Assembly: GCF_964213995.1 (NCBI RefSeq)
Contig: NW_027590302.1
Span: forward strand, 124,001 to 188,000
Direction: 5' to 3'
DNA: 64,000 nt
Source: Mustelus asterias
Lineage: Eukaryota
The position numbers and the translations under genes were made by a program. The notes beneath the pieces were generated by a model. That model did not search any database and had not been told where the DNA came from. It saw nothing but the letters and a program-made list of their open reading frames with translations. Position 1 is the first letter of the stretch, and each line of letters begins with the position of its first letter. Of the stretch, positions 708 through 2,959 are shown in pieces.

Positions 708-755
708 CTACAGTCACCACCACCATGGTCCCTTTTCCCCAGTCGCCGAATAAAT
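708..755 (-). CDS. IGHJ: Immunoglobulin heavy-chain J segment (LFGDWGKGTMVVVTV), unrearranged
   Basis: Minus strand ATTTATTCGGCGACTGGGGAAAAGGGACCATGGTGGTGGTGACTGTAG encodes the WGxGT motif; phase-1 donor GTAAG at 707-703; RSS directly 5'. Confidence 0.95.
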
Positions 756-794
756 CACAGTGTTACAATACCTGGGCTGGGTCATACAATAACC
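756..794 (-). promoter_or_regulatory. 23-spacer recombination signal sequence of JH
   Basis: Heptamer CACAGTG 756-762, 23-nt spacer 763-785, nonamer ACAATAACC 786-794 (plus-strand reading; 8/9 to consensus). Confidence 0.95.
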
Positions 795-1110
795 GTCCCT
801 GCTCAGAATAGACAGATATCGACAATTACTTTAAATATTCACAAAATCTACCAAAGTAAAGTCACCATGAATTTTCATATAATTGCAGCTTTTATATTAT
901 TTCTTCTTCATAATTGGCACAAATATTTTAGATTTCATAGAAGAACACGTGAGCATGTTATTGTAAACTGATAACTGAATTACTCTGACAGATCTCCCAT
1001 GTTAAAATGTGCTATTTGACGAGTGTTGGACATCAACAACCCTTCTCTGCAAATAGAGTTGGGTTGTAAAACTGAGCACCGACGCAATCTCAGTCGATTA
1101 CTGCTGAGGA

Positions 1111-1138
1111 GCTTTTTGTATTGAGAGAAATTGCTGTG
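1111..1138 (-). promoter_or_regulatory. 12-spacer RSS 3' of the pre-joined V-D
   Basis: Minus strand: CACAGCA (1138-1132) + ATTTCTCTCAAT (12 nt) + ACAAAAAGC (1119-1111). Confidence 0.88.
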
Positions 1139-1647
1139 ATACCCGGTAATCACTACCACTGCTGTGTCTTGCACAGTAATAGTTGGCGGTGTCTTCAATC
1201 TTCAGATTGTTCATTGTCAAAGCGAAAAAGTTGTTTGAAGTGTCTTTGGACGCAGTAAATCGGCTCTGAAGGATTGGGGAGTACCGTTTATCCGATGGAG
1301 AATAGTAGTGAACCAACCACTCCAGCCCCTGTCCGGGAACCTGTCGGATCCAGTGCATGACGTAACGATCAAGATCGAAGCCGCTGGTTTTACAAGTCAG
1401 TCTCAGGGAGCCACCGGGACGCCCGCTCTCTGCTTCTGGCTGAGTCAAGATAACCTCCGACTGGACACCTGTGTAAATATATATTTAAAAAAACACGAGA
1501 ATTAATCCTGGTGAAATGATTCCTGTTTCTGGAACATGCCAGAGATAGACTAACAATGAGACAGTAACAGTGAGAGACTTGGACAATAAAAAACTACTCA
1601 CCGGATAAGAAAGTCAGCAACAAACTGAGAGAAATCGCCGACCTCAT
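1139..1647 (-). CDS. IGHV: IgM-type VH gene: leader exon 1647-1602, V exon 1468-1167, fused in frame to D-like junction 1166-1139
   Basis: Leader [15 protein letters not shown](G), GTGAGT donor, 133-bp intron, ACACAG acceptor, then [76 protein letters not shown], typical of shark IgM VH frameworks; no stops; continues HSSGSDYRV up to a 12-RSS. Confidence 0.93.
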
Positions 1648-1738
1648 CTTTCTGGTCATTTTAGGGAAATGGTTGTGTCAGGAACTCAGTGAACAAACCA
1701 GCTCCCGGAGACTGTAGGATTCCGGTCCCGTGAGTGGC

Positions 1739-1815
1739 ATTTAAATACCCGGCAGAAGGGGGCGGCTTTCCAGGCGCCGCCTGTTGATTCCCTGCTGGAG
1801 GCGGCGACTGGATCC
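1739..1815 (-). promoter_or_regulatory. VH promoter: TATA-like box and GC-rich upstream block
   Basis: TATTTAAAT on minus strand at 1747-1739, ~90 nt upstream of the leader ATG, followed by a CpG/GC-rich stretch. Confidence 0.55.
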
Positions 1816-2959
1816 ACGTCCCACCTTCCACACCCCAACAGAATGGACTCCGAGATTTACAAGAGGTTAATATTAAAATGGACATTTTATCTGTATCGGG
1901 ATATTTGTTTGACTGAATGTAATGCGCCCATTATTTCTCATGGTATTATTGCAGTTCATCATCGCTTCATAAAAAAGCTAATTTCATTGTTAATATCGTC
2001 AATTTATGTGCACGCCCCTAACACGAAGACAAAACTAAAATTCATAAATTACATTTTCAGAGAATAAAGGGACCGTCAGTCTATTTTGCAACAATTCCGG
2101 GTCTCTGTCAAATTACAATAATAAAGCTTAATTGATCAGATGAATTATTATCGATTTCTGTAACTAAGTAACTAGATTTTTTTAAAAATCTATTTAGAGT
2201 GCAGATGGCTATCATTGTGCAATTTGGGCTTGTAGATAACAAGAATTTCCTGGTATTATTAAGTGTGTCCTGACATTTCTCAAAATGCCGCTGAACATAA
2301 GACACCCCTGCGGAAACTAGTGATATCAGGAAGCCGCCTGCCTGATAATCAGTGAGTTGACGGAGAAACATAAAATTGGCATCGACGGTTGGCAGTAAAG
2401 CTAATGAATCAGAGAGGACACGGTGATCAGTAAGCTTCTCCTTCAGCATCCAAATCATTGCAGCTCATTTTATTGGCACCGGCTGTCTAACATTCACTGG
2501 TACGGGGAACACAGGATATCAGGACTTTGCGGCATATCACACAATATCAAAAGAAAAATATTTCATCCTTCATTGAATCAGGATACAAACTGATAATTTC
2601 TCCATTCAATGGCAGCTATGAGAGGGACTGGTAAATAATAGAAATCAGATTTTACTGTACAACAGAACACGGTGCTAATCAGGTATCAGAGACGTTGCCG
2701 TTTAAATGAGGTGCGTTCAGAATATTCCAGGAATCCCCGATATCCAGGGCAGTTTTATGATTTTCTTTCAATTTTATTCATTTCAATTTTTTGCCATTTC
2801 ACTGATCTCATTGGGCTGGTGGATTGTGACCATCAACATCTCTCTCTCATATTTCATGAAGTTGTTCACAAACATGCTTTAATTATTGGAATGACATTTA
2901 ATTGAAAGTTATACAAATTAAATGCCATCCGGTCATCCTACTATTTTCTGAACTATTTA

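Follow-up and report, generated by a model that had tools for sequence, protein, structure and literature searches.

A germline-joined VDD-J IgM minicluster in Mustelus asterias and a sister copy in which the D2-J join is probably also inherited

Within a 64,000-nt stretch of Mustelus asterias DNA (the window) we find an IgM minicluster whose V, D1 and D2 segments appear to have been fused in the germ line of an ancestor, such that one D2-J join remains to be made; as a whole explanation we give this a probability of about 0.68. The layout itself is ordinary for sharks, as the VDD-J class is common in this genome and has been described in print. The point of interest is a sister pair of copies with one and the same VDD junction, which likely places two germ-line RAG events at a single cassette in order.

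The whole gene lies on the minus strand, and features below are given in window positions on that strand unless stated otherwise. A VH promoter block (1690..1860) aligns near-identically with the same block of the unjoined clusters L011 and L028 and holds a motif, TATTTAAA at 1747-1740, which we take to be TATA-like. The leader exon (1602..1647; 15 codons plus 1 nt) ends at a GT donor at 1601, and a further in-frame ATG lies four codons 5' of the leader (1659-1657), missing in three aligned paralogs. The VH exon (1164..1468, AG acceptor 1470-1469) is open, has both Cys and the Trp, matches the Pfam V-set domain (E 9.6e-17) and retains an untrimmed coding end. After YYCAR (Cys codon 1175-1173) come a 28-nt insert reading HSSGSDYRV plus one base (1166-1139), the 3' 12-RSS of D2 (1111..1138; heptamer CACAGCA, nonamer ACAAAAAGC), a D-free D2-J spacer of 316 nt (795..1110), the JH 23-RSS (756..794, read on the plus strand as CACAGTG, 23 nt and ACAATAACC) and an unrearranged JH with a WGKG motif (708..755, GT donor at 707). 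CH1-CH4, the secretory tail and the membrane exon follow outside the window, at ~116.5, 116.0, 115.3, 112.2 and 108.5 kb of its contig in the animal's own assembly (G000:C270).

This arrangement bears out most of the initial annotation. Direct reading and an RSS scan of the locus allowing up to three mismatches found no 23-RSS at the V end and no RSS between 1111 and 794, in agreement with the claims that the V 23-RSS and V-D spacer are absent, that 28 nt run into a 12-RSS, and that an unrearranged JH with a 23-RSS follows after ~316 bp with no D in between. The JH 23-RSS has the heptamer and nonamer of most paralogs. The 12-RSS heptamer has the form found in 33 of the 45 open clusters, and its nonamer is one base from the form of 34 of them, its own variant not occurring in any of the 45. 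Identity between the D2-J spacer and 64 spacers of paralogs ranges from 66 to 72%. A 12/23-compatible pair thus remains between D2 and J, the one RAG step that the annotation had foreseen. Without that step the V frame reads through the 12-RSS to a stop 25 codons past the Cys, so no chain is possible before the last join.

The assignment to IgM was also upheld. A V-set type VH, a split leader and a JH with WGxG, as in elasmobranch IgM miniclusters, are accompanied on the same contig by constant exons that all four match C1-set over the Pfam cutoff, and then by the tail and membrane exon. CH1 was at first not seen and was taken to be missing, an idea dropped once a wider motif located it. Full-length CH4 plus tail has mainly Ig mu chains among its top PDB matches; the highest-scoring one is an IgG hybrid, matched in two stretches. 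No stop or frameshift occurs in the leader, V, J, CH1-4, secretory tail or membrane exon, and the splice sites and promoter are kept.

We then turn to what the 28 nt are. The initial annotation called the gene V-D fused, and the fusion stands; a single V-D join does not. The first three nt correspond to the normal coding end of V in several paralogs and lie outside the junction proper, the V end being identical to that of L008, L015 and L027-L029. Alignment to the D1 and D2 of unjoined paralogs, which the annotation had pointed to, gave a match to both. Ten contiguous nt (1156..1165, the first two overlapping the V end as a 2-nt microhomology) match D1, a run reached by 3 of 20,000 shuffles, and the last 12 nt (1139..1150), anchored at the heptamer, match D2 at 8 of 12 positions (117 of 20,000 shuffles) and lead into a D2-type 12-RSS and a D2-J spacer homologous to those of paralogs. 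Judged from these alignments, the insert is the V end, a D1 core, about 5 nt and a full-length, diverged D2. Because it resolves into V end, D1 and D2, two joins have been made; the V, D1 and D2 coding ends are fused and the internal RSS are gone, as in a germline-joined VDD-J gene. The ~5 nt (1151..1155), whose sequence was read directly, may have arisen by N addition or through a short tandem duplication at a later time, and such a stretch sets this junction apart from published germline joins, which are N-poor.

The same layout might also arise if an ordinary non-RAG deletion had taken the V spacer and D region and spared the V heptamer, and the first 7 nt of the insert (CACAGCA) do look like an RSS heptamer located roughly where one would be expected. 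However, paralog V segments have the same CAC directly before their heptamer, and the 8 nt after it extend the D1 match, not the V spacer. We therefore rejected a leftover V heptamer; on the sequence, the heptamer-like start is a coincidence of V end and D1. Such a deletion would also have to account for a microhomology V-D1 join identical in kind that recurs in L104 and L114, and for the clean removal of all four internal RSS, and we consider it very improbable.

Inheritance of the VDD junction is almost certain. The junction pattern occurs exactly three times in the animal's own genome, on contigs C270 (the window copy), C128 and C71, with 31, 56 and 64 private SNPs, respectively, over 20.5 kb; because each has SNPs of its own, the junction predates their split. 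Among 40 scored V matches of 175 candidates in an own-genome DNA search, no junction-free V exceeded 84% identity. One unbranched short-read contig covers V FR3 together with the junction at depths of 42.7 and 52.3 in two runs, against 41.7/46.6 for V 5' and 39.7/47.1 for the J flank, where contig depth is a rough measure and not a copy number, and both runs come from one sample, possibly the source of the assembly, with run kind and tissue not on record. The J-flank contig starts at 288, beside a C270-private SNP at 287, which suggests that this SNP is real. Runs X13 and X15, from a second sample and another study, cover 9 of 30 and 4 of 30 bins, the junction lying outside their coverage. The germline origin proposed in the initial annotation is thus supported by three SNP-distinct assembly copies and by junction depth equal to flank depth, and its alternative, a junction confined to a minority of reads, is refuted in the two runs of this sample.

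A somatic origin does deserve consideration, given that a VDD-J intermediate of thymocyte type could be caught in an assembly. VDD-J (2R) intermediates are common in nurse shark thymocytes and also occur in B cells (PMC2435157), and unique joins of a TCR D suggest that this assembly holds somatic molecules. The somatic VDD-J form of the nurse shark has the identical layout but is unique to each cell, whereas the present junction is common to three diverged copies at full depth. An identical junction on three SNP-distinct backgrounds, the absence of any branch toward an unjoined form in contigs where junction and flank depth agree, and a D2 part that has diverged as the rest of its lineage has all argue against somatic capture, which we regard as extremely unlikely.

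As to the TCR D itself, a D-delta-type segment has six copies in the assembly, three unjoined and three joined (L009/L144 at G000:C138, ~217.7 kb; L146 on C401; L147 on C850), each with a different junction. One is joined to IgM D1 behind an intact IgM V and two to TCR V segments. These three are probably somatic T-cell joins that were assembled into contigs.

The sister copy C71 has the same VDD junction, joined to JH by a 390-nt deletion (748-1137) that removes the spacer and both RSS. The D2 end is intact or one base short, J is trimmed by 6-7 nt, and no bases are added. With 44 nt from Cys to Trp the join is out of frame and a stop follows 23 codons after the Cys; the leader also has a Leu-to-Pro change. 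By comparison with germline joins as described in PMC2193156, the join appears RAG-like, with its borders at the RSS and with trimming. Read depth in the two runs was 19.1/25.2 for the joined arm and 22.6/22.5 for the unjoined arm, summing to 44.3 and 45.1, which together equal the shared flanks (87-95). As the join of a single lymphocyte would not reach such depth, the D2-J join of C71 is probably inherited. It also demonstrates that cutting at the remaining 12/23 pair is possible, and because the VDD junction is common to both copies, VDD joining came first, then copying, then D2-J joining in one copy. This suggests that one cassette went through two successive germ-line RAG events.

Around the IgM gene C270 and C71 are 98.7-99.7% identical across ~43 kb, and beyond that tract they are 90-97% identical in most blocks, with one short block at 98.4%. 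The tract extends from -23500 to 19500 (window, relative to C71) and is centred on the IgM cluster. C270 and C128, in comparison, are 99.2-99.8% identical across the window. Far-flank probes at the expected offset gave a collinear match in 0 of 8 pairs, and in two genome searches the far parts of C270 matched other places in the genome best. From these comparisons the ~43-kb tract looks like a gene conversion or a recombinant duplicate, and the balance leans to C71 as a paralog rather than an allele. The simplest reading would be two loci in a duplicated region, C270 and C128 being alleles and C71 the other locus, with a homogenised tract. It is worth recording that 13 of 75 JH matches and 1 of 6 TCR D matches lie on the 20-Mb contig C71 and the others on small contigs, so the antigen-receptor region is present in the assembly in several versions.

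Our proposed history is that RAG in germ cells made the V-D1 join, by microhomology as in L104 and L114, and the D1-D2 join; that duplication or homogenisation of the cassette over ~43 kb followed; and that a second germ-line cut in one copy, C71, left it dead out of frame. The window copy would still recombine in B cells, where its 12-RSS and 23-RSS would pair for a one-step D2-J join that gives a largely fixed CDR3, about a third of joins being productive. Joined bluntly, D2 and J keep the frame (37 + 14 nt), and simulation gave a productive outcome for 32% of joins. The initial annotation had half of CDR3 inherited; the fixed part stands, and its share is rather over half, at 9 of ~14 residues after CAR, all on the V side. 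Perhaps such a gene has an advantage in early life, by analogy with other pre-joined genes, for which an early-life expression advantage is reported (PMC4279169).

Whether the window copy still contributes is a separate matter, and from its sequence we think it likely that it is used for antibody. The constant exons have a dN/dS of 0.31 against each of two open clusters, compared with 0.28 between those two (pairwise over 400 aligned codon columns, values that average both lineages; the C128 rows are incomplete because its CH2 entered this calculation in truncated form, and that CH2 was covered by a separate comparison). Compared with its 12 nearest paralogs, V shows 81-84% identity and a dN/dS of 0.46-0.77. 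In a tree of 52 distinct V sequences, reduced from 72 stop-free V exons, its branch is 0.35 against a median of 0.013, a length that makes its placement unreliable. On sequence divergence the lineage of this VDD-J gene is old. The best database matches of V are shark VH at 70-76%, and this junction is absent from those matches. In annotated proteins P0002 and P0003 of other sharks, V reads on, by eye, into an apparent 12-RSS, and for this reason VDD-J genes appear to be present in other public assemblies.

The V dN/dS, the change in D2 and the nonamer variant also fit relaxed selection, and one might thus suppose that an inherited VDD-J gene makes no antibody contribution now and is a cluster that is silent or in slow decay, serving at best as a donor of sequence. 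The long V branch, the V dN/dS of that range, a D2 that differs at 4 of 12 positions beside a nonamer seen in no open cluster, a dead sister with its altered leader, and two private replacements of C128, in CH2 and CH3, all speak for decay. Against this, every exon is still open after a dS of ~0.25 from the nearest clusters, the constant exons remain constrained at 0.31, promoter and splice sites are kept, and the RSS pair has been cut in the sister copy. We consider present-day silence unlikely, and continued use of the window copy remains our preferred reading. More tentatively, the data could be combined into an old V-D1-D2 join kept under selection and a recent, possibly polymorphic D2-J join that killed one copy; in that joint and rather doubtful two-event reading the D2-J join of C71 would be younger than ~0.3% sequence divergence.

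To place the gene among its relatives, a JH pattern search of the own genome gave 75 places; 79 non-redundant loci were considered, 11 repeats of counted places being left out, and the 74 with a V motif were classified. The open V-D1-D2-J layout is kept by 45 of the 74, so the pre-joined layout is not universal among paralogs, a point on which the initial annotation had staked its reading. VDD-J accounts for 12 clusters with 7 distinct junctions and VD-D-J for 8 with 6; the remainder are 3 V-D-DJ, 2 V-DDJ, 1 V-DD-J, 2 VDDJ and one cluster in which IgM D1 is fused with a TCR-type D. We dropped a supposed preference of old VDD-J genes for lengths that put a blunt join in frame, as 2 of the 6 other distinct junctions fit, no more than chance gives. 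Several VDD-J clusters have a V exon that matches, exactly or closely, the V exon of an open cluster (L007 and L014 vs L081; L114 vs L105; L092 and L094 vs L093). Joins in these five are candidates for being very recent, and better ones for a joined/unjoined polymorphism, or they are somatic. L016 (G000:C166, ~443 kb) is an in-frame, fully joined VDDJ IgM gene with one occurrence.

The neighbourhood of the IgM cluster also contains other genes. A TCR V-like relic at 33325-33047, of which only the 3' half is present with a weak V-set match, is followed by two tandem RSS with 23/24 spacers, 62 nt apart. Between it and the IgM cluster lies a 311-codon ORF (23470-22538) with a rhodopsin-family 7tm_1 match (E 1.2e-17). 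TCR alpha/delta-like V exons are found beyond the IgM membrane exon, 3-13 kb further downstream, at ~105.4, 103.2 and 101.1 kb (minus strand) and 95.6 kb (plus strand) of G000:C270. TCR V exons between IgH clusters, with IgM-to-TCR-delta trans-rearrangement, are described in PMC12227049, and the layout given there matches the TCR V segments beside this cluster.

Partly or fully joined IgH clusters (VDD-J, V D1-D2J, VDJ) have been described in horn shark and little skate (Kokubu et al. 1988, as cited in PMC2193153, PMC5192425 and PMC4279169). As described in those papers, they resemble the present gene in having V-D1-D2 fused, the D2 12-RSS and J 23-RSS kept and a Cmu of their own, and in being mixed with open clusters in one genome; they differ in that here a sister copy with an identical VDD junction has the D2-J join completed too. 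A VDD-J/VDDJ sister pair of this kind was not reported in the literature searched, which was largely open-access and did not extend to the original horn shark publication. The germline-joined NS4 (kappa) VJ genes of the nurse shark, for which PMC2193156 gives a germ-cell RAG origin with trimming and little N addition, likewise show clean removal of RSS, trimming, and dead and live members side by side. They are however light-chain genes, joined fully and in one step. Nurse shark IgM1gj is fully VDJ-joined and without CH2 (PMC5192425, PMC4279169). It shares with our gene the IgM class and an inherited CDR3 sequence, whereas the window copy has four CH exons including an open CH2 and is unjoined between D2 and J, and C71 is joined but out of frame.

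Long-read shark assemblies may mix inherited and probably somatic joins, and since they can, single-contig calls of germline-joined genes need support from depth or multiple copies. With a VDD-J and a VDDJ copy sharing one junction, it can be seen that the 12/23 pair left over in a pre-joined gene is a working substrate. Recent germ-line RAG activity has been an open question since 2000, with nurse shark searches negative and no joined/unjoined polymorphism found among the animals sampled (PMC2193156, PMC2193153). If the second join is inherited and also variable between animals, one PCR assay would be enough to score recent RAG activity in the germ line, and the sister pair would, if the reading is true, serve as a marker by which recent germ-line V(D)J recombination could be genotyped.
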